DNA of 64,000 bases from Bryobacterales bacterium (GTDB lineage: Bacteria; Acidobacteriota; Terriglobia; Bryobacterales; UBA6623). The stretch covers positions 5,817,132-5,881,131 of the forward strand of contig OZ241997.1 of NCBI GenBank assembly GCA_965204435.1, given 5' to 3'. The notes beneath the pieces are model-generated. The model saw nothing but the letters and a program-made list of their open reading frames with translations. It did not search any database and was not told where the DNA came from. A program made the translations under genes and the position numbers. How positions within the stretch are numbered: the first letter of the stretch is position 1; every line of letters begins with the position of its first letter. Positions 1 through 35,692 of this stretch are shown piece after piece.

Positions 1-293
1 GAGCGCTGGCGGCAGGGTTGGTGGAAGAGCAGGCGGTCGAGGCGCAGGCTGCGGGCGAGGCCGAGCAGGGCGGAGACGGCGCCGTGCTGGCGCGCGCGCC
101 CGGCCTGGACGGGCGCGTGGGGGCTGCCGAGAGGGAGTTGGCGGTCGAGGGCGGCCTTGAGCAGGTCGATGAGGGGCTGGGGCAGAGCGGAGAGATTGGC
201 GAGGGTGCGTTTGTGGACCTTGCCGTCGCGCCAGTAGGATTCGCGCAAGAGGTGGCAGGGGGACTTGCGGGCGAAGGAGGAGGTGATGTGCAT
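1..293 (-). CDS. DDE transposase, N-terminal part (3' end outside window)
   Basis: ATG on the complement at 293-291. It translates to MHITSSFARKSPCHLLRESYWRDGKVHKRTLANLSALP, one substitution from the 590-aa ORF at 30935. Confidence 0.85.
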   Translation of the reverse strand, partial: MHITSSFARKSPCHLLRESYWRDGKVHKRTLANLSALPQPLIDLLKAALDRQLPLGSPHAPVQAGRARQHGAVSALLGLARSLRLDRLLFHQPCRQR

Positions 294-389
294 TGTATGA
301 CTAGGAACCGGCAGGTTCTAACCTGTAATAATGATAGCAAAAAAATGGATTAATGACAACTGGTGCAAGTCCTATTGTATGACTAGGAA
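292..389. repeat. IS-internal 16-bp direct repeat pair (ATTGTATGACTAGGAA at 292-307 and 374-389)
   Basis: Exact 16-mer occurs twice, 82 bp apart. The same pair with the same spacing is in copy 2. Confidence 0.8.
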
Positions 390-766
390 AAACAGTTTTT
401 GAGGGGCCATTCTGGGGGCATTGGGAGGGATAGCCAGTAGTGCTCGGAGGCTAAGCTATTGAATGCGAAGAGGTTAGGTGCCGGGCCTCAGGCACGCAAA
501 GGCCCATAGCACAAAAAGTGGTCGGGGTAAGTTGGGCTTAGCGCTTGCGTTCCTCGACAGGGAACACGCTGTCCGGGCCGGTCGTGACTCAATCCCCCAA
601 AGTGATCTGTCGGTTTCACCCCCAGCTCCCCCGCTAGCTTGGGACAGGTGCCGGGTGAGCCAACGTCGGGTCCGAAGGCGAACGTGTTGTTGCCGTGCCA
701 GACAGAACTTCGGCTGGCAGCCGAGACCCGCTGCTCAAGTGTCCACCGTCCCGATGGGGCGCAGCG

Positions 767-4140: not shown

Positions 4141-4173
4141 TGAGTGCAGACCATGCTCGTTTGCGCGCAGGCT

Positions 4174-6735: not shown

Positions 6736-6736
6736 C

Positions 6737-6932
6737 GCCGGGCGGTGACGCGTAGCGGAAGTTACTTGGCTGCTCGGGACCCCGAGTGTTCTTCGGAACT
6801 GGCCAGCGGCGGGTGCCGGAAAGCCTGACCGTGACCTGGCCGAGCGAAGCGGTGTCGAGGTGCGGGGATCTGCAAGCCAACGCGGTGAACGTGATCTCAG
6901 AGACGCCCGGCTGTAACCCGGTTCCCCGCTGA
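6737..6932 (+). pseudogene. Decayed duplicate of the CRTAC1/ASPIC gene 3' end (right copy of the direct repeat)
   Basis: About 80% identical by eye to 3946-4140. A 1-nt deletion (gggacccc versus gggatcccc) shifts the frame. After the shift it reads PRVFFGTGQRRVPESLTVTWPSEAVS...NVISETPGCNPVPR*. Confidence 0.8.
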
Positions 6933-7033
6933 GTCCCCCTTGCTCTGTTGCGGCCGCTAAGGATTCGCTTGCGCCGAGCCGCGGCCAGCTTGGTAGACTC
7001 TGTTTCGCTTCGCTGATCGCGAGTTGAACCGTA

Positions 7034-13094: not shown

Positions 13095-16007
13095 ATGGAC
13101 TTGGCAATGTGCCGTCCTGGCAATCTTGGTGCGGGGCTCGCCGTCGTGGCGGCGTGGTGCGTTGCCTTTAGCGCCCAAGGCTCAGACTTCGAGTCAAGCG
13201 TACTCCCTATCTTGGAGCGGCGGTGCGTGGCTTGTCATGGCGAACAGCCGCAAGGCGGGCTCAAGCTCGACACCCAGCGACACATCTTGGAAGGAGGGCA
13301 ATCGGGGGCCGCGGTGGTGCCCGGATATCCGGATCGCAGCTTGCTGCTGGCCAAGGTGGTCTCAGGGCAAATGCCAATGGGGGGTGAGAAACTGCCCGAG
13401 TCAGAGATCGACACGATCCGCCAATGGATAGATGAGGCTGGCCGGTCTGCGGCGGTCACGGCGGAGTTGCGCACGGCTGAATCCCATGTGCTGCCGATCT
13501 TCCAGATGCGTTGTCAAGTCTGCCATGGCAAGCGAAAACAGGAAGGTGGCTTGGACCTGCGCACGATGGCCTCGCGCCTGAAAGGCGGTGAGTCCGGGCC
13601 CGCCCTAGTGCCTGGCAAGCCGGAGGAAAGTCTCTTGCTGCAGCGCATCGAGCGTGGCGAGATGCCCCCGCCGGAAATGCTCTTCGAGAACCATGTCAAG
13701 ACGCCGACCGACGCTGAGGTTGCTTTATTGCGGAAATGGATCGCCGAAGGAGCGCTGCCGTCTGAGAATGACGAACCCGTCGCGGACCACCCGCTAAGCG
13801 CTGAGGAACTCTCTCACTGGGCGTTTCAGACTCCGGTGCGGCCAGAGCCGCCGGAAGTGCAGAACGCTGCTAGGGTGCGCAATCCGATCGACGCCTTCAT
13901 TTTGCAAGAGCTTGAAGCCAAGGGTCTCGCCCTGTCGTCTGAAGCCAGCCCTAGAGCCCTGCTGCGCCGCGCCTATCTGGACCTGACGGGCATGCCGCCG
14001 ACGCTCGAACAAATTCGCGCCTTTGCCGACGAATCGGGGCCCGGCGCATACGAGCGGCTGGTCGACCAGCTGCTTGATTCACAGGAATATGGAGAGCGCT
14101 GGGCGCAGGTCTGGCTGGATTTGGCGGGCTATGCCGATTCGGAGGGCGTGATCGACGAGGACAGGCTGCGGTTGCACGCTTGGCGCTACCGCGACTACGT
14201 GATTCGTGCCCTCAACAGCGACAAGCCCTACGATCGCTTCCTGATCGAGCAGTTGGCAGGCGACGAGATAATTGACTACGCGAGCCTTGAAAGCGTTACC
14301 CAAGAGCATGTCGACACGCTCGCCGCCACGGGCTTTTTGCGCATGACTCCAGACGGCACTTACGGCTCCGCCACTGGATCAATCGCCGAGCGCTTCACTG
14401 TGGTTGCGGATGAGATCGAGGTGCTGAGTTCCGCGGTCATGGGAGTCACCGTAGGGTGTGCCCGCTGTCACGATCACAAGTACGACCCACTCTCCCAGCG
14501 GGAGTACTACAGCCTTGGGGCGGTGTTTCAGTCGGCGCTCGACCCGTATGACTGGTTGGATCCCACCGAGCGTTTCCTTGAAGTCGGCCTGGCTTCCGAG
14601 CAAGAGGCCGCTGCCGCCGCGAATGCTCCGCTAGAGGCTGAGATCGAGCAGTTGCAAGCCGAGTTCGATGCATTGGTGACGCCGTTCTTCGAACGTGAAC
14701 TTGAGCGGCGGTTGGCTGAGTTGCCAGCGGATCTGCGAGAGGGCTTGAGGGAAGTGGCGAACACTCCGCGCAAGATGCGGACCGCCGCTCAGAAGAGGCT
14801 TGCCGGCGAGCACAGAGACTTGCTACAGATTCCCAATGCCGATGGCGAATGGCACCAGATCGCCGAGGCCTTTCCGGAACTGAAGGACACCGCCGGGCCG
14901 GTCAACACCAAGATCAAGGAACTGAAGGACCAGCTAATCCCTACGCCGAAGATTCGGGCCGTGTTTGACATGGGAGGCGAGCCATCGCGCACCTACCTGC
15001 TGCAGCGTGGTGATGCGCAGGCAATCGGGGAGCGCGTTGCGCCCGCTGTGCCGCGTATGCTCGCGGCTCGCACCGCGCCGCTAAATCCCGCGCCTACCAG
15101 GGCGGGCACCAGCGGGAACCGCCTGGCATTCGCGCGCTGGCTCACCGACCCCGAGCATCCTCTGACCTCGCGGGTAATGGTCAACCGCATCTGGCTCGGC
15201 CACTTCGGACGGGGCATCGTCTCCACGCCCTCGAACTTCGGCCTTACCGGGGCGACCCCCTCGCATCCCGAGTTGCTGGATTGGCTGGCGACTGAATTCG
15301 TACGCCGGGGGTGGAGCATCAAGGCCATGCATCGGCTAATCATGACATCCGCCACGTATCGGCAGACGTCCCGAGTTTCCGAGGAATCTGCCTCTGCTGA
15401 TCCTGAGAACCTCCTTCTGTCACGCATGCCATTGCGGCGTATGGATGCCGAATCCTTGCACGATTCGATCCTGCGTACGACCGGCAGATTGGATGCGAAA
15501 CGCTTCGGGCGTCCGGTCAAGGTCACCAAGAAAGAGAATGGCGAGATCGTTCCCGAGGCAACTGAAGATGGTTGGCGGCGGGCTGTCTATGTGCTGCGGA
15601 AACGGCGCACGCCGGTCACCTTGCTAGAGGTGTTCGACGCACCGAAGCCGGCGCCGAACTGCACTGAGCGACGAGAGTCCAACGTTGCGCCGCAAGCGCT
15701 CCAGATGATGAACGGTGAGGCGGCCCTCGAACACGCCAGGTTCTTAGCGGGTCGACTGATTGACGAGCACCCTGGCGATCGTGCGTCACAGGTTTCGGAA
15801 GCGTACGAGCGCATCTTGTCGCGACCGCCCACCGATGCCGAAACCGATCTGGCGATGAAGGACTTAGAATCCTTGGACCAGCACTGGGTAGCCCACCTTG
15901 AGACGACAAAGCATCCCGGCCCTCGCCGCGAGGCGGCGCGCTGGATGGCCTTGGGTTCGTTCGCCCACGCCCTGCTGAACTCGGCAGAATTCCTGTACAT
16001 CGATTGA
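13095..16007 (+). CDS. PSCyt/DUF1549/DUF1553 protein (Planctomycete-type cytochrome c domains)
   Basis: 970 aa. Two N-terminal CxxCH motifs (CVACHG, CQVCHG), a CARCHDHKYDP motif, and a DUF1553-like C-terminus. Confidence 0.85.
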   Translation: MDLAMCRPGNLGAGLAVVAAWCVAFSAQGSDFESSVLPILERRCVACHGEQPQGGLKLDTQRHILEGGQSGAAVVPGYPDRSLLLAKVVSGQMPMGGEKLPESEIDTIRQWIDEAGRSAAVTAELRTAESHVLPIFQMRCQVCHGKRKQEGGLDLRTMASRLKGGESGPALVPGKPEESLLLQRIERGEMPPPEMLFENHVKTPTDAEVALLRKWIAEGALPSENDEPVADHPLSAEELSHWAFQTPVRPEPPEVQNAARVRNPIDAFILQELEAKGLALSSEASPRALLRRAYLDLTGMPPTLEQIRAFADESGPGAYERLVDQLLDSQEYGERWAQVWLDLAGYADSEGVIDEDRLRLHAWRYRDYVIRALNSDKPYDRFLIEQLAGDEIIDYASLESVTQEHVDTLAATGFLRMTPDGTYGSATGSIAERFTVVADEIEVLSSAVMGVTVGCARCHDHKYDPLSQREYYSLGAVFQSALDPYDWLDPTERFLEVGLASEQEAAAAANAPLEAEIEQLQAEFDALVTPFFERELERRLAELPADLREGLREVANTPRKMRTAAQKRLAGEHRDLLQIPNADGEWHQIAEAFPELKDTAGPVNTKIKELKDQLIPTPKIRAVFDMGGEPSRTYLLQRGDAQAIGERVAPAVPRMLAARTAPLNPAPTRAGTSGNRLAFARWLTDPEHPLTSRVMVNRIWLGHFGRGIVSTPSNFGLTGATPSHPELLDWLATEFVRRGWSIKAMHRLIMTSATYRQTSRVSEESASADPENLLLSRMPLRRMDAESLHDSILRTTGRLDAKRFGRPVKVTKKENGEIVPEATEDGWRRAVYVLRKRRTPVTLLEVFDAPKPAPNCTERRESNVAPQALQMMNGEAALEHARFLAGRLIDEHPGDRASQVSEAYERILSRPPTDAETDLAMKDLESLDQHWVAHLETTKHPGPRREAARWMALGSFAHALLNSAEFLYID

Positions 16008-16015
16008 GAACTGCC

Positions 16016-17434
16016 ATGCAACGCCCCTCTCGTCGCGACTTCTTCTCTCGCATCGGCGATGGCCTCCACGGGGCAGCGTTGGCATCGCTGCTAAGCAGTG
16101 ACCTCTTGGCCAGCGACGGACGTGCCACCTACGATCAGAAGCCGCGACAGCCGCATTTCGCGCCCAAGGCGAAGTCAGTCATTCACCTATTCATGAACGG
16201 TGGGCCGAGCCAGGTCGACCTGTTTGACCACAAGCCGGAACTGGAGAAACATGCTGGAGCCGCGGCTCCGCGCGATATCGCCAACCAACTCGAATTTACC
16301 GACGAAGTAGGCACGTTGATGCCTTCCCCGTACGGCTTCAGCCGACACGGCCAGTGTGGCATGGAGATTTCGGATCTCTTGCCGGGTCTCGGCAGCGTCG
16401 CGGATGACATCACGCTAGTCCGCTCGATGTACGGCGAGCATTTCAACCACGAACCGTCGTTGTACCTGATGCATTCCGGACGCACCCTGCCGGGGCGGCC
16501 CGCCTTGGGGGCTTGGGCAGTCTATGGGCTGGGAACCGAGAACCAAAACCTGCCGGGCTATATCGTTCTCGACGACCCGCTCGGCTATCCGATCAACGAT
16601 CTTCAGAATTGGCAGTCCGGATGGCTCCCGCAGGTCTACCAAGGCACGAAATTCCGTGCGGAAGGGCCACCGGTCTTGAACCTGCGGCGGGAGCAGGAGT
16701 TGCCTAGCCCGCTGATGGAAGCCGAGCGGGCGCTGGTGCGCCGACTGAACCTGGCCCATCGGGACGCTAGGCCGCTGCAGCCGCAACTAGATGCGCGCAT
16801 CGAAAGCTACGAACTGGCGGCCCGCATGCAGATGGCTGCGACCGACGTTGCTGATCTATCGTCCGAGAGCGAGGCGACGAAAGAGATGTACGGAATGAAC
16901 GACGAGCGGACGCGGGCCTACGGAGCGCGTCTGCTACTGGCGCGGCGCATGGTCGAGCGAGGCGTGCGCTTCGTGCAGGTTTTCATTGAGTACCAGATCT
17001 GGGACAACCACCTGAATCTAGATCGCGAGCTCGGCTATGCGTGCGCCAAGACCGACAAGCCAGTTGCGGCGCTGATCAAGGATCTGAAACAGCGCGGCCT
17101 GCTGGACTCCACCCTAGTGATCTGGGGCGGGGAATTTGGCCGCATGCCGGTGGCACAGGTCGGTCAGGCGGGCACTACTGGGCGTGACCATGGCCCGGCT
17201 GGCTTTAGCATTTGGATGGCCGGCGGGGGTGTCAAGGGCGGACATGTCCACGGTGCCACCGATGAGATCGGGCACAAGGCCGTCGAAGATCGCGTCAGCG
17301 TGCATGATTTCCACGCGACGATGCTGCACCTGCTGGGTCTCGACCCTGAGAAATTGGTCTTCAACGTCCATGGCCTCGAAGAGCGCCTCATCGGCCAGTA
17401 TCCGGCTCGCGTGGTCAAAGAGATTTTGGCCTAG
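16016..17434 (+). CDS. DUF1501 protein (TAT-exported, sulfatase-fold)
   Basis: MQRPSRRDFFSRIG twin-arginine signal and GGEFGRMP...GRDHGP. The alternative TTG start at 16004 overlaps the upstream stop. Confidence 0.85.
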   Translation: MQRPSRRDFFSRIGDGLHGAALASLLSSDLLASDGRATYDQKPRQPHFAPKAKSVIHLFMNGGPSQVDLFDHKPELEKHAGAAAPRDIANQLEFTDEVGTLMPSPYGFSRHGQCGMEISDLLPGLGSVADDITLVRSMYGEHFNHEPSLYLMHSGRTLPGRPALGAWAVYGLGTENQNLPGYIVLDDPLGYPINDLQNWQSGWLPQVYQGTKFRAEGPPVLNLRREQELPSPLMEAERALVRRLNLAHRDARPLQPQLDARIESYELAARMQMAATDVADLSSESEATKEMYGMNDERTRAYGARLLLARRMVERGVRFVQVFIEYQIWDNHLNLDRELGYACAKTDKPVAALIKDLKQRGLLDSTLVIWGGEFGRMPVAQVGQAGTTGRDHGPAGFSIWMAGGGVKGGHVHGATDEIGHKAVEDRVSVHDFHATMLHLLGLDPEKLVFNVHGLEERLIGQYPARVVKEILA

Positions 17435-25580: not shown

Positions 25581-25673
25581 CGCGTGCACGCTCGCCCCGG
25601 AAAGGCGGGCCGGTGATACAGTGGATTGCGACGGATGCGGGAGCGGCGAACACATGGTCAGCCAGGCCACCGC

Positions 25674-28600
25674 ATGCCGGTCTTGGTGTTGGCGATCGTC
25701 GGTGCCGTCTGGCCGGCTACGGCCGAGGTCGACTTCGGCGAGCAGGTCTTCCCGATTCTGCAACGGTCTTGCCTCGGCTGCCACGGGCCGGACCAGCAAC
25801 TTCGCGGTTTACGGCTCGATGCGAGAGCGTCCGTTGTGGGCGCCTCCGCGCCGCGCTCCATAGTGGTGCCAGGAAGCGCCCAAGACAGCGAGCTGTACCG
25901 GCGAATTGCCGGTCTCAGTGATGGCCCGCGCATGCCGATGGGCGGCACCCTCTCTGCCGTTGAGATCGACACGATTCGCCAGTGGATCGAGGCCGGAGCG
26001 GACTGGCCGGAGGGCGCTGGGGCGGAGGAAGTCAGACAGCACTGGGCGTTCGTAGCTCCCGAGCGCCCGCTGCCGCCGGGCGATCGGTCTCTCCACCCGA
26101 TTGACGCGTTCGTTCGAGCTGGGCTCGCTGACGCTGGCTTGGAACCTATGCCGCGAGCGAGCGACGCTGCCCTCCTTCGGCGCGTTAGTTTGGACCTGAC
26201 AGGCCTGCCCCCGGCTGTGGAGGAGTTGGAAGAGTTCCAAGAGGAACCGGACTTCGGGGCACTGGTCGGGCGCTTGTTGGCCTCCCCTCACTACGGGGAA
26301 CGCTGGGGCCGCCTCTGGTTGGATGCCGCCCGGTACGCCGATTCCGATGGCTACGAAAAGGACATGCCGCGCCAGGTGTGGTTCTACCGCGATTGGGTCG
26401 TGGACGCGCTGAACCGGGATCTTCCGTATGACCGCTTCGTGGTCGAGCAGATTGCTGGCGACTTGCTCCCGGGAGGGACCCAGCAGCAGCTTATTGCAAC
26501 CGGCTACCTGCGCAACTCCATGGTCAACGAGGAGGGCGGGACAGACCCCGAACAGTTCCGCATGGAGGCGCTATTCGACCGCATGGATGCCATCGGCAAG
26601 GGCATTTTGGGCCTCACCATCCAATGTGCGCAGTGCCATTCGCATAAATACGACCCTCTCACGCACGACGAGTACTACCGCCTGTTTGCGTTCCTCAACA
26701 ATGCCGACGAGGCCAAGGTGGCGGTCTACACTGCCGAGGATGCTCAAGTTCGCGAGGCGGTGATCGACGAGATCCGTGCCATCGAAGACGAACTGATGGC
26801 ATCCAATCCCGACTGGCAGTCACGCATGGCCTCGTGGGAGCGGGAAGTGCGCGGCAACCAGCCGCAGTGGAAAGTGCTGCATCCCGAGGTGGTCGACCTT
26901 TCCACGGGGGGCCAGCGCTACCTGCTGCAGAGCGATGGCTCGCTGCTGGCACAGGGTTACGCACCGACCGAGCATGTGGCCGAGTTCGCCGCGCAAACGA
27001 GCCTGCCAGACATCACAGCCGTCCGGCTCGAGGTACTGACCGACCCCAATCTCCCGCTCGGCGGGCCAGGACGGTCTGTGTACGGCACCGGCGCCCTAAG
27101 CGAGTTCCGGTTGCGGGCCGCGCCCGCGGACGACCCGACCTCGCAGCAAGACGTCTGGATCCGGACCTCCAGCGCGGACATCGACTTGCCCGAGCGCAGC
27201 TTGGACCCGAAAGTCTTCCCTCACAAGGAGGGCTCGGAACGCTTCACCGGACCGATCCACTTCGCCTACGACGACTGCGTCGACACGGCTTGGGAACTCT
27301 TTGCCGGGCATGGCCGCAGCAACCAGCCGCGCAAGGCTGTCTTTGTCTTTGACCGGCCGATCAGGCACAGTTCCGGCACGCTGCTGACGTTCTTTCTGGA
27401 TCAGAGCCACGGAGGGTACGACAGCAACGTTGGCCAAAACAACAATCTCGGCCGGATCCGCCTCTCGGTGACCAACGCCGACGATCCGGTGGCGGATCCG
27501 CTGCCCGCACGAGTCCGCGCCATCGTGGAGCAGGGTCGCGATGGCCGCACGCCCCAAGAGGACAGGGAGGTGTTCAGCTTCTGGCGGACCACAGTTCCGG
27601 CTTGGGCCGGTGCGAACGAGCGCATCGAGCAGGCTTGGGGGCGCTACCCGCAAGGCAACACGCAACTAGTCCTTCAGCGGCGTTCGGAACCGCGCCAGAC
27701 CCACCTGCTGCAGCGCGGAGATTTCCTAGAGCCAGCGCATGAGGTCAAGCCGGGCGTGCCCGAGTTCCTCCATGCCTTGGGCGCAAGCGGCCGCCCTCCC
27801 CGCCTAGCGTTCGCCGAGTGGCTCGTCGACCGCGGCGCTCCCACAACAGCCAGAGTCATCGTGAACCGTATTTGGCAGGCGTACTTCGGCACTGGCTTGG
27901 TCGCAACCGCCGAGGATTTCGGGATGCAAGGGGATTTGCCGTCGCATCCAGAGCTGCTCGACTGGCTGGCGGTGGAGCTGATGGACAGCGGTTGGAGCTT
28001 GAAACACATCCACCGCTTGATCGTGACCTCCGGGACGTATCAGCAGGCGTCGCGCCTGACTGATCAGGCCAGCGCCGTCGATCCGGACAACCGCTTGCTT
28101 TCGCGCGGCCCGCGAGTGCGGGCCGACGCGGAGATCGTTCGGGACATCGCGCTAGCCGCGAGCGGCCTGCTGAGCCATCAGGTCGGCGGCCCACCGGTGC
28201 ACCCGCCTGCCCCGGAGTTGCTGTTCAAGCCACCCATCAGCTTCTCCGAAAAACCGTGGCCCGCCGCGGCGGGAGAGGACCGCTACCGGCGGGCGCTCTA
28301 TACGTTCCAGTACATTTCGGCACCATATCCGGCCTTCGAAGTCTTCGACGCGCCCAACGGGTCCACCGCCTGTGTGAGGCGCGGCCGCTCGAACACCCCG
28401 TTGCAGGCGCTCACTACCCTGAACGAGGAGCTTTTCATGGCAGCCGCGCGCGCACTGGCGAGGCGAACCGTCGCGGCGGCAACGGACGAGCGGGAGCGAC
28501 TCGACCACGCCTTCCGTTCGTGCTTGTCTAGGGAGGTCCGATCCGATGAAGCAGAGCTCCTGCTGGAGTTGCTGCGAAAGACGCGGGAGCAGCTCGCTGC

Positions 28601-28730
28601 CGGCCTCCTGGATGCGCGCGAACTGACCGCCGCCGATTCCGACGAGGGTCCCAGCCCGGATGATGAGGCAGCGTGGACGGTGTTGGCGAGGGCGCTGCTC
28701 AATCTCGACGAGACCATTACGAAGCAATGA
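25674..28730 (+). CDS. PSCyt/DUF1549/DUF1553 protein
   Basis: Start set at ATG 25674 (MPVLVLAIVGAVWPATA). Contains CLGCHG, a CAQCHSHKYDP motif and a DUF1553-like C-terminus. Confidence 0.85.
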   Translation: MPVLVLAIVGAVWPATAEVDFGEQVFPILQRSCLGCHGPDQQLRGLRLDARASVVGASAPRSIVVPGSAQDSELYRRIAGLSDGPRMPMGGTLSAVEIDTIRQWIEAGADWPEGAGAEEVRQHWAFVAPERPLPPGDRSLHPIDAFVRAGLADAGLEPMPRASDAALLRRVSLDLTGLPPAVEELEEFQEEPDFGALVGRLLASPHYGERWGRLWLDAARYADSDGYEKDMPRQVWFYRDWVVDALNRDLPYDRFVVEQIAGDLLPGGTQQQLIATGYLRNSMVNEEGGTDPEQFRMEALFDRMDAIGKGILGLTIQCAQCHSHKYDPLTHDEYYRLFAFLNNADEAKVAVYTAEDAQVREAVIDEIRAIEDELMASNPDWQSRMASWEREVRGNQPQWKVLHPEVVDLSTGGQRYLLQSDGSLLAQGYAPTEHVAEFAAQTSLPDITAVRLEVLTDPNLPLGGPGRSVYGTGALSEFRLRAAPADDPTSQQDVWIRTSSADIDLPERSLDPKVFPHKEGSERFTGPIHFAYDDCVDTAWELFAGHGRSNQPRKAVFVFDRPIRHSSGTLLTFFLDQSHGGYDSNVGQNNNLGRIRLSVTNADDPVADPLPARVRAIVEQGRDGRTPQEDREVFSFWRTTVPAWAGANERIEQAWGRYPQGNTQLVLQRRSEPRQTHLLQRGDFLEPAHEVKPGVPEFLHALGASGRPPRLAFAEWLVDRGAPTTARVIVNRIWQAYFGTGLVATAEDFGMQGDLPSHPELLDWLAVELMDSGWSLKHIHRLIVTSGTYQQASRLTDQASAVDPDNRLLSRGPRVRADAEIVRDIALAASGLLSHQVGGPPVHPPAPELLFKPPISFSEKPWPAAAGEDRYRRALYTFQYISAPYPAFEVFDAPNGSTACVRRGRSNTPLQALTTLNEELFMAAARALARRTVAAATDERERLDHAFRSCLSREVRSDEAELLLELLRKTREQLAAGLLDARELTAADSDEGPSPDDEAAWTVLARALLNLDETITKQ

Positions 28731-30127
28731 CTGCACCTGACACGGCAAACCCGATCGCCCGCCGCTGGTTTCTCGAGCGCTGCGGATTCGGGCTGGGCAC
28801 GGCGGCACTGGCGCACCTGTTGCGCGGCGACTCGCGCGCGGCGACCCGCCTGCCGCACTTCGCGCCCAAGGCCAAGAATGTCATCTTTCTCTTCCAAGCG
28901 GGTGGGCCGAGCCATCTAGAGCTCTTCGACTACAAGCCGGAGCTGGCAAAGTTCGACGGCACGCTCCCGCCCCCGGATCTGCTCGAGGGCTACCGGGCGG
29001 CGTTCATTGATCCGAATTCCAAGCTCCTAGGCCCGAAGTACAAGTTTCGGAGGGCAGGGCAGAGTGGTTTCGAGATCTCCGAACTCCTGCCGCATATGGC
29101 GACCGTGGTCGATGATGTCGCCTTTGTCCGTTCGACCGTCACGGACGCATTCAATCACGCACCGGCGCAGCTTCTCATGAGCACCGGCGCCCAGCAGTTC
29201 GGCAGACCCAGCATGGGAGCTTGGGTGACCTACGGACTTGGCAGCGAGTCAGAGGACCTGCCGGGCTTCATCGTTCTGAACTCGTCGGACTCGGGGCCAA
29301 GCGCGGGTACTGCTCTGTGGGGCGCGGGCTTCCTGCCCACGGTGCACCAAGGCGTGCCGTTCCGCTCCGGCGGGGAACCGGTCTTGTTCCTTTCCAACCC
29401 GCTGGGAATCACCGACCGTGTCCAACGCGACACTCTCGATGCGATCAACGGGATGAACCGCATCCAGCTCGAACGAATGGGGGATCCGGAGATCCAGACC
29501 CGCATTCGGTCATTCGAACTCGCGTTTCGCATGCAGAGCGCCGCTCCAGCCCTGATGGACATCAGCAACGAGGCCCCCGAGACGCTGGAGCTGTACGGGG
29601 CCGAGCCGGGCAAGGCCTCGTTTGCCAACAACTGCCTGCTGGCCCGACGGCTGGTGGAGCAGGGGGTGCGGTTCGTGCAGCTCTACCACGAGGCTTGGGA
29701 CCACCATGCCAACTTGACCAAGGGAATCCAGCAAGTCGCCAAGGATGTCGACCAAGGCTCGGCAGCGTTGATCAAGGATCTCAAGCGGCGCGGCTTGCTG
29801 GATGAGACCTTGGTTCTGTGGGGCGGGGAGTTCGGGCGAACGCCCATGACCCAGGACACCAATGGGATTGGCGACGGGCGCGATCACCATCCGGGCGCCT
29901 TCACAACGTGGATGGCCGGAGCCGGGATCCGCCGAGGCGTTACCTTGGGGCGGACTGACGAACTAGGCTTCCGCACGGTCGAGGACAAGGTTCACGTCCA
30001 CGACCTGCACGCGACCGTGCTGCACCTGCTTGGCTTCGACCACACCAAGCTAACCTACCGCTTCCAAGGTCGTGACTTCCGGCTGACGGACGTGAGTGGA
30101 GAGGTGGTCGAGAAACTGCTGGTGTGA
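28727..30127 (+). CDS. DUF1501 protein (TAT-exported, sulfatase-fold)
   Basis: ATG 28727 overlaps the upstream TGA (ATGA). ARRWFLERCGFGLGTAALA signal and GGEFGRTP...GRDHHP. Confidence 0.85.
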   Translation: MTAPDTANPIARRWFLERCGFGLGTAALAHLLRGDSRAATRLPHFAPKAKNVIFLFQAGGPSHLELFDYKPELAKFDGTLPPPDLLEGYRAAFIDPNSKLLGPKYKFRRAGQSGFEISELLPHMATVVDDVAFVRSTVTDAFNHAPAQLLMSTGAQQFGRPSMGAWVTYGLGSESEDLPGFIVLNSSDSGPSAGTALWGAGFLPTVHQGVPFRSGGEPVLFLSNPLGITDRVQRDTLDAINGMNRIQLERMGDPEIQTRIRSFELAFRMQSAAPALMDISNEAPETLELYGAEPGKASFANNCLLARRLVEQGVRFVQLYHEAWDHHANLTKGIQQVAKDVDQGSAALIKDLKRRGLLDETLVLWGGEFGRTPMTQDTNGIGDGRDHHPGAFTTWMAGAGIRRGVTLGRTDELGFRTVEDKVHVHDLHATVLHLLGFDHTKLTYRFQGRDFRLTDVSGEVVEKLLV

Positions 30128-30211
30128 GTTGCTGTAGGGCACTCTTGCGACACGGCCCGTCGGTCCGGCACGAAGGTAAGCACCGACGAGTTCTTCAGAC
30201 GACTGGGTGCC
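29993..30211. repeat. Left copy of the duplicated convergent junction (intact DUF1501 3' end plus decayed SMP-30 3' end)
   Basis: Colinear with 30561-30691 plus 32867-32945. An ungapped stretch of 88 nt across the DUF1501 stop has 67 matches by hand count. Confidence 0.75.
30132..30211 (-). pseudogene. Remnant of an SMP-30/gluconolactonase gene 3' end
   Basis: The minus strand reads VLTFVPDRRAVSQECPTA, against MLPFLPAQGPCRESAS* for the intact gene at 32891. The DNA block GGGCCGTGTCGC is identical. The stop codon is replaced by CAG. Confidence 0.5.
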
Positions 30212-30253
30212 GCTCATCGCCCGCAATCCCTCGAAGCGGCATGGCGCCCCGTT

Positions 30254-30484
30254 CTATTCGCCCCACGATGCTGCGGCCTCCCATCCTGTCAGGTCGCTTT
30301 CCACGTGCGGGGCGCGTTCGTATCCCAATCGGTCTTGCTCCTCCAGTCTCACTATGTGAAGACGTCGCAGGTGTTCCTTCAGAGCGTCTCGGATCAGAGC
30401 GGAGCGGTTCGTGCCAGCCCGACTAGCGGCTTCGTCAGCTCTAGCGAGAAGGTCGGCGTCGAGAACTACTTGGACTGTCTTCAC
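30254..30484 (-). CDS. CopG/RHH-family antitoxin-like protein with no adjacent toxin
   Basis: MKTVQVVLDADLLARADEAASRAGTNRSALIRDALKEHLRRL...EEQDRLGYERAP...WEAAASW from GTG 30484 (the track starts at 30505). This is the pattern seen in MazF/PemK-partner antitoxins. Confidence 0.75.
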   Translation of the reverse strand: MKTVQVVLDADLLARADEAASRAGTNRSALIRDALKEHLRRLHIVRLEEQDRLGYERAPHVESDLTGWEAAASWGE

Positions 30485-30560
30485 AACCTGCAAAATAGTC
30501 CACACCCAACGCTATAACTTGCTTGTAGGTATTCATGGGGTCATCGATCCATAGCTGCTA

Positions 30561-30691
30561 CACGTCTCTCAGCCGCTCCGCGCTGCAGAAGCAACGTGCT
30601 TGGCAAGGGTGTCCTAGCGACGCCAAGTTGACCTACCGCTTCTAGGGACGCGACTGCCGGCTGCCGGGTGTCGGTGGGTCGTTGTTCTAGA
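30561..30691 (+). pseudogene. Decayed DUF1501 3' end fragment, split by the IS (continues at 32867-32890)
   Basis: About 73-76% identical, ungapped, to 30043-30127. Contains an in-frame TAG and indels further upstream. Confidence 0.75.
30686..30691. repeat. Target-site duplication TCTAGA (left)
   Basis: The same hexamer directly flanks both IS termini. The paralogous uninterrupted site at 30108-30113 reads TCGAGA. Confidence 0.75.
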
Positions 30692-30838
30692 CCCAACTTA
30701 CCCCGACCACTTTTTGCGCTATGGGCCTTTGCGTGCCTGAGGCCCGGCACCTAACCTCTTCGCATTCAATAGCTTAGCCTCCGAGCACTACTGGCTATCC
30801 CTCCCAATGCGCCCAAAATGACCCCTCGAAAACCGTTT

Positions 30839-30936
30839 TTCCTAGTCATACAATATGACTTGCAGCAGTTGTCATTGATCCATTTATCTGCTATCATTGT
30901 TGCCAGTTAGAACCTGCTGGTTCCTAGTCATACAAT
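30839..30936. repeat. IS-internal 16-bp direct repeat pair TTCCTAGTCATACAAT (30839-30854 and 30921-30936)
   Basis: Exact repeat 82 bp apart. Each copy contains TACAAT. The second overlaps the transposase ATG at 30935. Confidence 0.8.
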
Positions 30937-32707
30937 GCACATCACCTCCTCTTTCGCCCGCAAGTCCCCCTGCCACCTCTTGCGCGAATCCTACTGGCGC
31001 AACGGCAAGGTCCACAAACGCACTCTCGCCAATCTCTCCGCTCTCCCCCAGCCCCTCATCGACCTGCTCAAGGCCGCCCTCGACCGCCAACTCCCTCTCG
31101 GCAGCCCCCACGCGCCCGTCCAGGCCGGGCGCGCGCGCCAGCACGGCGCCGTCTCCGCCCTGCTCGGCCTCGCCCGCAGCCTGCGCCTCGACCGCCTGCT
31201 CTTCCACCAACCCTGCCGCCAGCGCTCGCTGGCCCTCGCCCTGATCCTCGCCCGCCTGCTCAAGCCCGGCGCCAAGCTGCGCCTGGAACGCGAACTCGGC
31301 CCCGCCGGCCAAACCACCCTCGCCCACCTGCTCGACATCCGCAACGCACCCGTGGACGAACTCTACGACGCCATGGACTGGCTGCTCAAGCGCCAGCCCG
31401 CCATCGAGCGCAAGCTCGCCAAACTCCACCTCCGGCAAGGCGGCCTGGCCTTGTACGACCTCTCCTCCAGCTACGTCGAGGGCTCCTGCTGCCCGCTGGC
31501 CAAACGCGGCTACTCGCGCGACCATCGCTCCGACCGCCCCCAGATCACCTACGGCCTGCTGTGCAATCAGGACGGCTGCCCGATCGCGGTCGAGGCCTTC
31601 GCCGGCAACACCGCCGACCCCAGCACGCTCAGCAGCCAAGTCAACAAGTTGCGGCAACGCTTCGGCTTGCAACGGCTGGCCCTGGTCGGCGACCGCGGCA
31701 TGCTGGCCCAGACGCGCATCGCGGGCGAGCTGCAGCCAGCCGAGCTGGACTGGATCACGGCCCTGCGCCACGACAGCATTCGCAAGCTGGCTGCCGAGGG
31801 GCACTTCCAGCCCTCGCTGTTTGACACGCACGGCTTGGCCAGCATCACCGCGCCGGACTTCCCCGACGAGCGCCTGCTGGTGTGCTACAACCCGCTGGTG
31901 GCCGCCGAGCGGCGGCGCAAGCGCGCCGACTTGCTGGCCAGCACCGAGGCCGACCTGGCCGGGATGGCCAGCGCCTACGCGGCCGGCAAGATCGACCGCG
32001 ACGAGTTCAACCGGCGCTTGGGCACGCTGCGCAGGCGCAAGATGGGCAAGCACTTGCAGTGGTGCTTCGACGAGCACACGGAGGCCTTCAGCTCGACGCG
32101 CGACGAGGAGTCGATCGCGGCCGAGGCGCGCCTGGACGGCTTCTACGTGGTGCGCACCAGCCTGGCGGAGCAGGATCTGGACGATGCCGGGGTGGTGCGC
32201 GCCTACAAGAGCCTGGCGCGGGTGGAGCGGGCTTTCCGCTCACTCAAGACGAGCGGGCTGCGGGTGCGCCCGATCTTCCACTGGAAAGAGACGCGGGTGC
32301 GGGCGCACCTGCTGGTGTGCATGCTGGCGTACTACGTGGAATGGCACCTGCGGCGCCAGCTGGCGCCGCTGTTGTTCAGCGAGGAAGGCGAGCCCCAGCA
32401 TGCGGGCGGGCCGGTCGGGCCAGTGCAGCGCAGTGAGGCTGCCAAGCGTAAGGATCGCACGCGCCGGACGGCTGATGGGAGCCTGCCGGTGCAGAGCCTG
32501 GCAGACCTGTTGGCGGGGCTGGGCACGCTCAGCGCAGTGGAGTTGAAATACGCACAGGTGCCCGGCTATGCGGTGCCCACGCTGAGCGAGCTGGAGCCGT
32601 TACACGAGCGCGTGTTCGAGCTCCTGGGCTTCCAGCCCCACCCGGCACCGGCGCTGAGCGAGCCACCAGACAACCCAGGCAATGCGCCGCCCAAGACGCC
32701 AACCTAG
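30935..32707 (+). CDS. IS1634-family (IS4 superfamily) DDE transposase
   Basis: 590 aa. N-terminal YWRNGKVHKRTLANLS is typical of IS1634-type transposases. LYDLSSSY and LVGDRGM are candidate DD residues, and YKSLARVERAFRSLK is the Y-R-E-K-type motif. Confidence 0.85.
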   Translation: MHITSSFARKSPCHLLRESYWRNGKVHKRTLANLSALPQPLIDLLKAALDRQLPLGSPHAPVQAGRARQHGAVSALLGLARSLRLDRLLFHQPCRQRSLALALILARLLKPGAKLRLERELGPAGQTTLAHLLDIRNAPVDELYDAMDWLLKRQPAIERKLAKLHLRQGGLALYDLSSSYVEGSCCPLAKRGYSRDHRSDRPQITYGLLCNQDGCPIAVEAFAGNTADPSTLSSQVNKLRQRFGLQRLALVGDRGMLAQTRIAGELQPAELDWITALRHDSIRKLAAEGHFQPSLFDTHGLASITAPDFPDERLLVCYNPLVAAERRRKRADLLASTEADLAGMASAYAAGKIDRDEFNRRLGTLRRRKMGKHLQWCFDEHTEAFSSTRDEESIAAEARLDGFYVVRTSLAEQDLDDAGVVRAYKSLARVERAFRSLKTSGLRVRPIFHWKETRVRAHLLVCMLAYYVEWHLRRQLAPLLFSEEGEPQHAGGPVGPVQRSEAAKRKDRTRRTADGSLPVQSLADLLAGLGTLSAVELKYAQVPGYAVPTLSELEPLHERVFELLGFQPHPAPALSEPPDNPGNAPPKTPT

Positions 32708-32866
32708 TCACCAACGGCCTGTTCGAAATGCGGCTGTTCCGCCCAATGGCGTACGCAGCAGGGACTCGACGAAATCACCTAAGTGACTGATCCATCGCGA
32801 GGTACATCAGCCCAAGGTTGGAGCTTACGATGGCGTACAGCCATAAACTAGTTGGGGTAAGTTGGG

Positions 32867-32872
32867 TCTAGA
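32867..32872. repeat. Target-site duplication TCTAGA (right)
   Basis: See the left copy at 30686-30691. Confidence 0.75.
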
Positions 32873-32890
32873 AACTGCCGGCGTGAGCTG

Positions 32891-33754
32891 CTACGAGGCG
32901 CTTTCGCGACACGGCCCTTGGGCAGGCAGAAACGGAAGCATCGGCTCAAGCGGATGCTCTACCGCACCGATGTGCCAGCCACCAAGGTTCGCGAAGTAGA
33001 TCTCGTCTTTGCGCAGGGCGACGTTGGTCGGCCGGTTCATCCATTCTGCTAACGGGTCTCGATACAGCACTTCGAATCGGTCGTCAGTTCGGATCACGCC
33101 AATTTGGTCAGGAGAGTAGTAGGCAACATAGATATTGCCTTCGGTGTCTAGGGCGACTCCGTCGGGTACGGTACCAGACTCCAAGGGAATCTGGCGTACC
33201 GGTTCCATGCTCGCCACTTGCGGGCCATCGATTCGAAACGCGAGGATGCTGGGAGCGGTGCTCTCGACCACGTAGAGCAGCGAGTTGCCATGGTCGACGA
33301 AGACACCGTTGGTGAACCGGAACGGCCCGGGGTGTGCGCAGAGCGTCTCGCCTTCTGGAGTTATGGCGAATAGCCGACCGCTATGTCGCGTGGGATGGTA
33401 CGTGCCCGACTCGCTGAAGAACAGATTGCCCTTTGCGTCGAACGCACAGTCGTTCGGGTTGTCGAATTGACCCGTCGAAATCGCTTCGACGCCGCCGTTC
33501 GGTTCGATCCGCAAGACTTCGTTGCGACCTGCGTCGCAGGCGTAGACGGCACCAGCTTGGTCAGAGCACAGTCCGAGGACAAAGCCTCCGGTCTGCGCTG
33601 TAGCCTCGAACGAACCAGTCGTCGGATCAATGCGGTAGATTGCTCCCGCCTCGCTACCGCACACCAGCGAGCCGTCGGCTGCAAAGCACAGGCCCTCGGG
33701 GTGGTCCAAGCCGGCACACACGAATCGGACGATCTCAGGGGAAGCGGGTGTCAT
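32891..33754 (-). CDS. SMP-30/gluconolactonase/LRE-family beta-propeller (putative sugar lactonase)
   Basis: 287 aa. Repeated propeller blades with PEGLCFAADGSL, NDCAFDAKGNLFF, TNGVFVD and PDGVALDTEGNIYVA. Confidence 0.85.
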   Translation of the reverse strand: MTPASPEIVRFVCAGLDHPEGLCFAADGSLVCGSEAGAIYRIDPTTGSFEATAQTGGFVLGLCSDQAGAVYACDAGRNEVLRIEPNGGVEAISTGQFDNPNDCAFDAKGNLFFSESGTYHPTRHSGRLFAITPEGETLCAHPGPFRFTNGVFVDHGNSLLYVVESTAPSILAFRIDGPQVASMEPVRQIPLESGTVPDGVALDTEGNIYVAYYSPDQIGVIRTDDRFEVLYRDPLAEWMNRPTNVALRKDEIYFANLGGWHIGAVEHPLEPMLPFLPAQGPCRESAS

Positions 33755-34031
33755 GGGCCGGGAAGCGACGTTCGTTCCAGCATATCGCTGCGTGATCAGG
33801 CCGAACCGTCCGATAATCTCGAGCGAACGGCCACGATCCTCCTCGGTCGTGCGCCGCAGAAACGAGGTGTGCTCTCCCCATAGGACCGGAGCTAAGCGGA
33901 ATCACAACACGAATCTGCCCGAGTACAGACATCTGCTAGTCTTCAGCGGTCGCACGATCCGTGTTCTGGGGTAGTTGTTGGAGTTGGTTGCGAGATTCCG
34001 AGCCTAGTAATGTTTATGATGGATTATGAAT

Positions 34032-34060
34032 TTGACTAAATTTATAATTTGCAGTAAATT
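34032..34060 (+). promoter_or_regulatory. Sigma70-like promoter of the ATPase gene (TTGACT-17 nt-TAAATT) in an AT-rich tract with tandem short repeats
   Basis: TTGACT at 34032-34037 and TAAATT at 34055-34060. TAAATTTAT occurs at 34037 and 34055. TTTAGTGG occurs at 34064 and 34073. Confidence 0.4.
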
Positions 34061-34093
34061 TATTTTAGTGGCTTTAGTGGGGTAAGTTTCAAA

Positions 34094-35299
34094 ATGACGA
34101 CATTCTCAAACCCCTTTCGCCCTGGCGCGGGTCACACGCCGCCCTATCTGGCTGGGAGAGAAACGGAGCGCAATGAGTTTCTAAGACTACTCAATCAACA
34201 GACAGTCTTGGAGAACATGGTTCTGACCGGGCTTCGAGGAGTGGGCAAGACAGTCCTGCTCGACTCGCTCAAGCCATTGGCAACGAGTCGAGGCTGGATA
34301 TGGGTCGGAGCTGATCTCTCCGAGTCCGCTAGCTTGAGCGAGCATAACTTGGCAACTCGCGTCTGTGCAGACCTGGCTCTGGTCACATCAAACATAGTCG
34401 TGGCCACGGAGGAGGTTAGGAGGGCAGGATTCTCTGCCGAGCGGGAAGAAATCCCTCGCACACTCGGATTCCGAGATTTGATGGATACCTACGAAAGAGT
34501 TCCCGGCTTGTCTCTCGACAAGATCAAGGGCGTACTTGGCGTTGCGTGGCGCGCTGTTTCCAGCATGCCGAACGTGCGTGGGATCGTCTTCGCCTACGAC
34601 GAAGCGCAGAACCTCGCGGACAGATCAGCTAATGAGCAGTATCCCTTGTCGTTGCTGCTTGATTCCTTTCAATCCCTGCAGCGGCAGGGATTTCCCATGA
34701 TGCTCGTTCTGACTGGTCTTCCGACCCTATTCCCCAAGCTAGTCGAGGCGAGAACATTCTCCGAGAGGATGTTCAGAGTTGTGTTCCTTGACCGCCTTTC
34801 CGAGAGCGAGAGCACGGAAGCAGTCCGCAGACCCATCGACGATGCAGAGTGTCCTGTCCGACTTGAAGGTGGCTCCGTGAGCAAGATCGTCAAGATGTCT
34901 GGAGGCTACCCGTACTTCATCCAGTTCATCTGCAAAGAGGTGTACGACGCATTTATTCAACGCCATGATCGAGGGGAAGATGCCTCCGTTCCGACTGCAG
35001 AGATTCAGCACAAGCTAGACACGGACTTCTTTTCAGGGCGATGGGAACGAGCGACTGATCGGCAGAGAGCACTGCTGTCTGTGATTTCTCGCCTTGAGAA
35101 CTGCGAAGAAGAGTTCACGGTCCAACAGGTGGTTGAAGAATCGCAACGGTCGTTGGAGAGACCGTTCGGCGGCAGCCAGGTCAGTCAGATGATGGTCGCC
35201 CTAGCATCCCAGGGGCTGGTGTACAAGAATCGGCACGGGAGGTACTCCTTTTCAGTGCCTCTATTGGGTCAATTCATCCGCAGGCAGATGCACGGTTAG
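34094..35299 (+). CDS. P-loop ATPase (AAA_16/archaeal-ATPase-like) with C-terminal winged-helix-like domain; function unknown
   Basis: 401 aa. NPFRPGAGHTPPYLAGRETE, then Walker A GLRGVGKT and Walker-B-like IVFAYDEAQNL. The C-terminal FTVQQVVEE...LASQGLVYKNRHGRYSF looks like a wHTH. G+C is lower than in the neighbouring genes. Confidence 0.75.
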   Translation: MTTFSNPFRPGAGHTPPYLAGRETERNEFLRLLNQQTVLENMVLTGLRGVGKTVLLDSLKPLATSRGWIWVGADLSESASLSEHNLATRVCADLALVTSNIVVATEEVRRAGFSAEREEIPRTLGFRDLMDTYERVPGLSLDKIKGVLGVAWRAVSSMPNVRGIVFAYDEAQNLADRSANEQYPLSLLLDSFQSLQRQGFPMMLVLTGLPTLFPKLVEARTFSERMFRVVFLDRLSESESTEAVRRPIDDAECPVRLEGGSVSKIVKMSGGYPYFIQFICKEVYDAFIQRHDRGEDASVPTAEIQHKLDTDFFSGRWERATDRQRALLSVISRLENCEEEFTVQQVVEESQRSLERPFGGSQVSQMMVALASQGLVYKNRHGRYSFSVPLLGQFIRRQMHG

Positions 35300-35692
35300 A
35301 ACCGATTTGGCTGTCGGCTCCCAGCAATACGGACCGGGCTCTTCGTACCGCCTTCCAGCAGTACAGGTGACTTCGCCGCAAGATGTCTGGTTGTCGCCGG
35401 GATTGTGCCAGAGCGTTTGGAGGGATCGAAACCGCAGCGTTTGCGGCGCTCGACGGAATTCTCTTCAGCGTCCGGCGGGCTCGAGTTACTGATCGGCTTG
35501 CGGGGCCGGAGCTCTCTTGGGCACCTGCTTTCTCAAATCGACGAGATCAAGGCACGGCGCAACGGACGGCACGCTGGTGCGCTTTTCCGCGCAGCCGGGC
35601 ACTACGACCATCGCCAGCACAAGTGAGAATCGGCTCGTGGGCTGTTTCAGAGCGTATTCGTGGTTCGCTGGACCGATTCTCTCTCTAGAGTT

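Follow-up and report, generated by a model that had tools for sequence, protein, structure and literature searches.

A duplicated junction of two convergent genes points to an ancient toxin-antitoxin insertion with long target duplication in Bryobacterales

We describe a chromosomal locus of a Bryobacterales bacterium at which the junction of two convergent genes, a DUF1501 gene and an SMP-30/gluconolactonase-like (SGL) gene, is present twice, with a single ribbon-helix-helix (RHH) antitoxin gene between the two copies. The locus lies within a stretch of 64,000 nucleotides that was analyzed as a whole (hereafter, the window; assembly GCA_965204435.1, contig OZ241997.1, positions 5,817,132 to 5,881,131 of the forward strand). 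Related genomes carry the same junction either once, with nothing inserted, or twice, the latter in seven lineages, and in four of these the insert is a complete toxin-antitoxin (TA) pair in which the RHH gene is followed by a PemK/MazF toxin gene. We conclude that the locus probably goes back to an ancient insertion of an RHH-MazF cassette with duplication of ~240 bp of its target, and that the lineage of the window later lost the toxin by deletion and was hit by an insertion sequence (IS). How chromosomal TA loci outside mobile elements arrive is poorly understood, and in this reading a bare MazEF cassette entered between two genes that left no intergenic room by duplicating its target. The locus adds a case with a novel type of cargo to a known, rarely documented mode of insertion.

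The two copies of the junction, which we call L and R, each consist of a functional and a decayed half (hereafter, A and B denote the functional DUF1501 and SMP-30 ends, and a and b the decayed remnants of the same two ends). In copy L, the intact DUF1501 gene (28673-30127, forward strand; PF07394, E 7e-159), whose protein is 94-99% identical to the orthologs of relatives, contributes half A with its last ~140 bp (~29985-30127). This is followed by a 4 bp spacer, GTTG (30128-30131), that separates the DUF1501 stop from the place where SMP-30 once had its own, and by remnant b (30132-30185, reverse strand), frameshifted by 1 bp and no longer ending in a stop codon. In copy R, remnant a (forward strand) is split by the IS, which cuts at 30691/30692: the first part (30561-30691) has an in-frame TAG, and the second (32873-32886) holds the final codons and the conserved TGA. 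The spacer GCTG (32887-32890) leads into half B, the last ~85 bp of the intact SGL gene (32891-33754, reverse strand; PF08450, E 5e-21), orthologs of which are 58-98% identical across Bryobacterales. The GTTG of copy L thus has its counterparts in the GCTG of copy R and in CAGC at the empty site of one relative (L007), and the stop positions of the two genes are 4 bp apart in both copies.

With the IS (30692-32866) and one copy of its TCTAGA target duplication removed beforehand, positions 30042-30185 of copy L align with 30620-30691 plus 32873-32943 of copy R at 106/143 bases (74%) and with a single gap of 1 bp. This alignment reaches a local score of 66, versus 12.1±1.3 (maximum 20) for 200 shuffles, and a repeat search recovered both junction halves independently. 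Each half is also detectable alone, with a score of 44 versus 9.5±1.4 shuffled for the DUF1501 half and of 22 versus 8.7±1.3 shuffled for the SMP-30 half, where 0/1000 shuffles reach 22. At the protein level, remnant a reads DAKLTYRF*GRDCRLPGVGGSLF*KLPA* in the DUF1501 frame, versus HTKLTYRFQGRDFRLTDVSGEVVEKLLV* in the intact gene (asterisks are stop codons), and remnant b reads VLTFVPD...GPCRKSA, with its 1 bp frameshift, versus the intact MLPFLPAQGPCRESAS*. More than ~100 bp from the stop, alignment of the DUF1501 remnant needs indels, and ungapped identity is 61% over 29993-30158; the originally duplicated extent of DUF1501, ~150 bp, is backed by the relatives.

These alignments confirm that the duplicated junction is real, as the original prediction, made from the letters of the window, had held. 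That prediction had been staked beforehand on statistical support for the SMP-30 remnant of copy L, which the shuffles provide, and its description of the decay, an in-frame TAG in the DUF1501 remnant and a decayed SMP-30 end, agrees with the translations above. Its details needed small corrections: the hand count of 67 of 88 ungapped matches across the DUF1501 stop becomes 65-66/88 on recount, depending on placement, and copy L, given as 29993-30211, does contain the remnant, whose SMP-30 part ends at ~30185, so that the right end at 30211 overshoots into the toxin stub described below.

The window contains a second DUF1501 gene (~16000-17430), with DNA 70-74% identical to that of the junction gene and a very different 3' end (...ARVVKEILA*). 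As a candidate source of remnant a, this paralog was rejected: its 3' end is unrelated and scores 10, versus 44 for the neighboring gene.

For comparison we used loci of relatives from metagenome assemblies (numbered L001 and so on), and obtained further loci and the identity of the clade, Bryobacterales, by scanning the SGL protein against one genome per species. RHH homologs 74-86% identical to that of the window occupy the same locus in acidobacterial metagenome assemblies, where the gene order is SGL, RHH, a PemK/MazF toxin gene overlapping the RHH stop, and then the convergent DUF1501 gene and a PSD1 gene. The site is occupied in the window, in L005 (SGL 98% identical), L013, the group L003/L004/L006, L002, L008, L001, and L085. 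A single junction is found in L007, with a 4 bp spacer, and in L012, L014, and L022, with 13 bp spacers, and all four of these empty sites align with both junction copies.

Remnant a follows the SGL stop in the occupied loci of the window, L005, L013, L003/L004/L006, L002, L008, and L001; in L085 an IS21-family insertion occupies this side and makes it unreadable. Remnant b stands just before the DUF1501 stop in every occupied locus, with homologous b sequences in six relatives, and the flanking repeat of the relatives is 67-114 nt long ungapped. No second full DUF1501 or SGL gene exists at the site in any relative examined; two complete paralogs there would, by the original prediction's own terms, have refuted it in favor of segmental duplication followed by deletion. 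Its two further expectations, that related genomes would have a single convergent junction and that each copy of a duplicated target would have kept the half under selection, also agree with the empty and occupied sites. The insertion reading is therefore supported, now with a full TA pair as cargo. What the original prediction overlooked is that cargo, the surviving toxin stub, the clade-wide and ancient nature of the event, and the precedent for this mode of insertion in restriction-modification (R-M) systems.

Several features of single relatives deserve mention at this site. We considered L085 as an independent site of the same cassette and rejected this, as the locus is no different one: an IS21-family element has inserted there, ~75 bp upstream of RHH. 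In L008, an insert of ~970 bp (L008:4865-5832) separates the SMP-30 stop from remnant a and contains small open reading frames (ORFs), including one for a putative membrane protein of 69 aa. The junction is thus a repeated landing site, with this insert, the IS21-family element of L085, and the IS1634-family element of the window. Remnant a of L001 holds a hairpin (L001:5865-5892; CTTCCGGCTGAC ATCA GTCAGCCGGAAG) with a perfect stem of 12 bp and a loop of 4 nt, which begins 13 nt past the SMP-30 stop and lacks conservation in the other lineages. A conserved terminator or 3'-UTR hairpin, tried as an explanation for the persistence of the remnants, was rejected, with RNAalifold giving -1.5 kcal/mol and no covariation. 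In a more distant locus (L023:4872-5089; SGL 70% identical), only DUF1501 fragments follow SMP-30, and then unrelated genes; here the DUF1501 gene has been lost, and there is no duplication.

The RHH gene of the window (30254-30484, reverse strand) encodes an intact CopG-type antitoxin with an RHH DNA-binding domain (PF01402, E 1.4e-7, score 31.7 versus a cut-off of 20.5); the mechanical ORF reaches 30505, and the conserved start is the GTG at 30484. It is 74-86% identical to the RHH genes found ahead of MazF at this locus in relatives. This bears out the original prediction that it is an antitoxin of the MazF-partner type. The same prediction had placed one gene and no toxin between the copies; RHH is there as described, and so is the 5' stub of a PemK/MazF toxin gene (30186-30266, reverse strand), whose start overlaps the RHH stop. 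The stub has an ORF of 23 codons (30195-30266; VGRIERGAMPLRGIAGDERHPVV*) that is 65% identical over 23 aa to the starts of the intact toxins in L001, L003, and L005, and toxin-derived sequence continues to ~30186. An adjacent, co-oriented PemK/MazF toxin gene (PF02452) is present in relatives and absent from the window. Judged by its sequence, the module of the window is degenerate, an orphan antitoxin beside a stub rather than a functional TA system.

Complete RHH and PemK/MazF genes are found in L001, L003/L004/L006, L005, and L085. The intact toxins (L001, L003, L005, L085) are 107 aa long and have a ratio of nonsynonymous to synonymous substitution rates (dN/dS) of ~0.1. The other occupied lineages show different states of toxin loss, with a frameshift in L013, a truncation in L008, and a deletion with the same end-points in the window and in L002. 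In the window, ~290 bp are missing relative to loci with an intact toxin, and the sites fused by the deletion are TCGGCGATTCCC-like on the toxin side and TCGGTG.TTCCC-like where b begins. The ~290 bp deletion that took out the toxin thus ran between imperfect 12 bp repeats (TCGGYGRTTCCC-like): toxin codons ~27-31 hold one of the two, and the second lies where remnant b begins.

The RHH alleles of the three toxin-defective genomes group together. Between the window and L002, the synonymous divergence (dS) is 0.16 in RHH versus 0.58 in DUF1501, and because of this difference we favor a shared allele: the deleted or defective allele has probably spread by homologous recombination. An independent, recurrent deletion of the toxin in these two genomes is not favored, as their RHH alleles are close and their flanks distant. 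The RHH gene itself has dN/dS of 0.38-0.57 in toxin-less pairs and of 0.16-0.24 in toxin-bearing pairs (0.2-0.57 overall, for short sequences), which suggests that constraint on it is relaxed and not absent. The cassette upstream region (30485-30560, reverse strand) has a degenerate copy, GTGTGGACTATTTTGCAGG, of the operator/promoter motif conserved in the family, TGTGGAGTATACTG...TCCACA, which stands upstream of RHH in 70 related MazEF loci. As a conserved palindrome, this motif hints at a putative operator for autoregulation. A scan for a consensus sigma-70 promoter upstream of RHH gave no match. The nearest RHH homologs outside the locus (P0015, P0016; 55% identical) are solitary RHH genes beside an HNH gene.

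Apart from the preserved scar, then, the module is an ordinary one. As in other MazEF/PemIK systems, the RHH gene overlaps the toxin gene and has a conserved, predicted palindromic operator upstream, and the toxin is the first part to be inactivated, by the deletion, frameshift, and truncation described above. Such stepwise toxin loss fits the reviewed degeneration of chromosomal TA loci (PMC2654758). What sets this locus apart from other MazEF/PemIK loci is the insertion scar. For the annotation of the window, RHH is an orphan antitoxin by a toxin stub, and the two "pseudogene ends" are best read as the scar of the insertion.

We ordered the events using distances and trees of SGL, DUF1501, and PSD1. 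By these, the empty sites with 13 bp spacers (L012, L014, L022) branch outside the occupied clade, whereas L007 falls inside it, as sister to the occupied L003 (DUF1501 dS 0.17). Because L007 is nested within the occupied clade, we take the insertion to be ancestral to the clade and L007 to have lost the cassette cleanly. L007 has a clean single junction (L007:4862-4872), which implies precise loss of the whole cassette with both gene ends restored. This loss probably occurred by recombination inside the well-conserved center of the two copies; in L003, 41/44 bases around the stops are identical between copies. The locus offers a clean natural series: some sites are empty, others hold both TA genes, the toxin is seen at various stages of decay, the cassette was once lost cleanly, and IS elements came in later.

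The remnants themselves speak for one old event. The b remnants have derived states in common across lineages (e.g., CAGCCAGATCGGTG), and the a remnants retain ancestral states that the functional copies later lost (e.g., G at column 33); from both together we favor a single origin. The consensus b is 77% identical to the B of the ingroup and ~40% to the B of the outgroup, and since b resembles the SGL tail of the ingroup rather than that of the outgroup, the duplicated sequence is the ingroup's own junction. Jukes-Cantor (JC) distances between a and A and between b and B are 0.26-0.61, and crown-wide DUF1501 dS is 0.82-0.89. As these distances do not exceed neutral decay since the crown, no initial divergence of the copies is needed.

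The following history would account for these observations. In the ancestor of the clade, the DUF1501 gene and the SMP-30-like gene would have been convergent, with stop codons only 4 bp apart. A cassette of ~0.7 kb, comprising RHH and MazF with their own promoter and no mobility gene, would have inserted between them, and ~240 bp of the target, comprising the 4 bp spacer together with ~150 bp from the end of DUF1501 and ~85 bp from that of SMP-30, would have been duplicated. One copy of the junction would thus have come to lie on each side of the cassette, with intact 3' ends kept by both genes, after which the redundant half of each copy would have decayed. Later, in the lineage of the window, the toxin deletion left the orphan antitoxin, still an intact ORF, and the IS1634-family element thereafter entered remnant a with a 6 bp target duplication. 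Of this history, the comparisons directly show the duplication, the empty sites, the cargo as it originally was, the loss of the toxin by deletion, and the late entry of the IS.

As to how the duplication arose, we infer that one-step host repair or replication is most likely. The duplication could have come from fill-in of a break with long staggered ends, or from a replication template switch that re-copied ~240 bp, with selection retaining only an event that left both abutting genes whole. Since the stops are 4 bp apart, only a duplication of both gene ends leaves both genes intact, and selection alone may be behind the preservation of exactly such an outcome. No integrase, transposase, or conserved terminal inverted repeats were found inside the insert in any occupied lineage examined, nor were inverted repeats at the cassette ends common to L001, L003, and L005. 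Because the insert lacks a recombinase and conserved terminal inverted repeats, a classical transposon or an element carrying its own integrase is disfavored.

Integrative elements that replace the 3' end of their target gene are well known, for instance tRNA-targeting islands and e14 or phage 21 at icd. They resemble our locus in that a direct repeat of a gene 3' end flanks the insert, the target stays intact, and the displaced fragment decays at the far end. The cassette could by analogy have come in by Campbell-type, site-specific integration of a circle that carried the TA module and a junction copy, i.e., an attP mimicking both gene ends, with the remainder of the element and its integrase deleted later. 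A crossover near the stops would give host A with element b on one side and element a with host B on the other, and so predicts the chimeric pattern exactly, without reciprocal decay. The repeat center, which is best conserved in several lineages (around the stops in L003, as above, and 20/20 after the stop in L005), could be read as the crossover core, and elements that rebuild the 3' end of a target gene do exist. However, the known elements come with their own gene for a site-specific recombinase and with a core that is short and identical, whereas here no lineage has a recombinase, two convergent genes are preserved, and the insert is 0.7 kb. Across eight lineages, neither an integrase nor any other element gene or remnant was found in an insert as small as ~0.7 kb, whose promoter and 3' end directly adjoin the junction remnants. 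The high central identity is not seen in the window, where the copies are diffusely ~74% identical, or in L001; it is in some other lineages that identity is higher near the center. Moreover, b matches the ingroup's own SMP-30 tail and not outgroup tails, and the divergence of a from A lies within in-place neutral decay, which makes a pre-diverged foreign arm unnecessary. We consider this route, which calls for additional steps that were not observed, improbable.

Alternatively, the ~240 bp junction could first have been duplicated in tandem, a neutral change that keeps both genes whole, and the cassette could have landed between the copies in a second step, in the one stretch of dispensable DNA at the site. 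Such a duplication would do no harm and would give inserts a safe place to land, and the site has taken other insertions (the ~970 bp of L008, the IS21-family element of L085, and the IS1634-family element of the window). Yet no lineage has tandem junctions minus the cassette, all sites being either single or occupied; the cassette must land at or very near the boundary of the copies; and two events are invoked where one is enough. We therefore rate this sequence of events as very improbable.

The IS in copy R is, by comparison, a late arrival. The element (30692-32866, forward strand) encodes a transposase of 590 aa (30935-32707; NCBIfam NF033559, E 5e-93, score 313 versus a cut-off of 100), has the terminal inverted repeats CCCAACTTACCCC / GGGGTAAGTTGGG, and is flanked by a 6 bp target duplication, TCTAGA, at 30686-30691 and 32867-32872. 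By its transposase, inverted repeats, and 5-6 bp target duplication it belongs to the IS1634 family, for which a target duplication of 5-6 bp is typical (PMC2266710). It is missing from L005 and L013, which align to the window at ~95% in the DUF1501/PSD1 flank and at 91-93% in the SGL flank, and because the closest relatives lack it, the IS is a recent passenger within remnant a that did not bring about the long duplication. Another copy of the IS, incomplete, inverted, and cut by the window edge, lies at window positions 1-541 and is 96% identical to 30687-31227; its outer flank is CTTAG, versus TCTAG at the other copy.

The family does invite the thought that the long duplication was a by-product of IS1634-family transposition, as a member is present at the site and IS1634 and IS1549 make direct repeats of 8-514 bp (PMC2266710), a range that includes duplications of similar length. 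The IS here, however, sits inside remnant a, i.e., inside one copy of the long repeat and not between the copies, and it has its own ordinary duplication of 6 bp. It is absent from L005, L013, and all other occupied relatives, which have the long duplication, and that duplication is far older (JC 0.3-0.6) than the divergence of the two IS copies of the window, which are 96% identical. The chance that IS1634-family transposition made the duplication is close to nil.

Some observations weigh against a single ancient insertion with target duplication, which we nevertheless regard as probable. The divergence of a from A varies about four-fold among lineages, from JC ~0.13 (L008) to 0.56 (L003), and in L001 and L008 a few states are shared by the lineage's own a and A; such a pattern could reflect gene conversion, exchange between lineages by recombination, or repeated insertion. 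Conservation is also uneven along the remnants, with a and A 85% identical in the first 20 bp and 57% in the next 20 bp. The relatives are all metagenome-assembled genomes or contigs. Finally, the mechanism is not readable from so decayed and ancient an event, and indels blur the exact outer limits of the duplicated stretch.

Insertion with long target duplication has been described for R-M gene complexes (Nobusato et al. 2000, Gene 259:99; Furuta, Abe & Kobayashi 2010, PMC2853133). In a survey by genome comparisons, such insertions were found for all R-M types, with repeats of 30 to ~420 bp and without mobility genes (PMC2853133). Furuta et al. required a complete pair, an insert of <20 kb without other mobile-element genes, a repeat of >30 bp, and an empty site (PMC2853133). 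Our locus compares as follows. A complete addiction pair, toxin and antitoxin, is present by analogy in the loci of relatives, the class of cargo differing from the original R-M definition. The insert is ~0.7 kb with two TA genes only, the IS elements of the window and of L085 being later, lineage-specific additions. The repeat spans 143 aligned bp in the window and would originally have been ~240 bp, and L007, L012, L014, and L022 carry the repeated sequence once.

The likeness to R-M insertions therefore lies in a small addiction-type pair without a mobility gene, in direct repeats of tens to hundreds of bp, and in a repeated sequence that is single at related empty sites; R-M repeats often overlap gene ends as well. 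The differences are that the cargo here is a type II TA module, an RHH antitoxin with a MazF RNase, and that the event is ancient, with copies ~74% identical, whereas the R-M cases are mostly young and near-identical. The authors of the R-M work suggest that DNA breakage by the restriction enzyme plays a role (PMC2853133). Because a MazF RNase cannot supply DNA breakage, we favor a host process, and the same scar around an RNase-type module argues for a host-driven mechanism over DNA cutting by the cargo. A 2014 review states the long-target-duplication mode for R-M systems only (PMC3874152). In the literature searched, we found no paper linking type II TA modules with long target duplication, the two terms occurring together only in R-M-centered papers, which is not proof of absence.

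Such events leave a signature that can be screened for across genomes: direct repeats of 30 bp or more on either side of the insert, with a match at an empty site. From 4658 matches to the MazF family, we fetched 80 metagenome loci, of which 52-59 had usable flanks and were screened for direct repeats around the TA pair. Flanking repeats were present in only ~4 of 52 other MazEF loci; most of the screened loci had none, with a longest exact match of 7-12 bp, and reverse-complement controls gave at most 15 bp. The L151 locus has a perfect 26 bp duplication (L151:1744-1769 and 2525-2550) that ends exactly where the cassette promoter begins; the cassette lies 26 nt into an Fpg/Nei-like gene (MPELPDIA...), and the duplication leaves the gene intact downstream. 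L095 has flanking repeats of 159 bp at 79.5% identity, which are partly an element also found in L098, and L162 has a flanking repeat of 22 bp. L149, a contig of 1447 bp, has identical ends of 80 bp (1-80 and 1368-1447) around a Uma2-family gene and a MazEF pair; such ends would fit a circle, a tandem array, or a loop made in assembly from identical flanking repeats. In L089 and L113, a kinase N-terminus is found on both sides, but the cassette stands between tandem paralogous kinases, which makes these cases ambiguous. Flanking repeats at the screened loci are thus an enrichment and not a rule. That MazEF-type cassettes enter chromosomes alone, by insertion with long target duplication, through a general, host-mediated and recombinase-free route independent of DNA cleavage by the cargo, is an extension that we hold to be doubtful.

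Around these conserved genes, individual relatives carry other TA genes, each at an intergenic spot of its own: a PIN gene (L001:4217-4603), HTH-HipA (L002:3273-4879), and a HigB-like gene (L003:11448-12053). The repeat search reported no long flanking repeats at these three spots.

Around the locus, the forward strand also carries a PSD1/DUF1553 gene (25626-28730). Adjoining the junction on its other side, the interval between a sulfatase gene and the SMP-30 gene is a second variable spot. It is only ~50 bp long in L013, a different segment of 2.3 kb in L005, and a segment of ~1.8 kb in the window (33850-35670), which carries an AAA_16 ATPase gene (34094-35299); a flanking duplication was looked for at this ~1.8 kb insertion, and none was found. 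Elsewhere in the window, direct repeats of ~200 bp lie at 3946-4145 and 6736-6934, 2.79 kb apart and with 79-94% identity.

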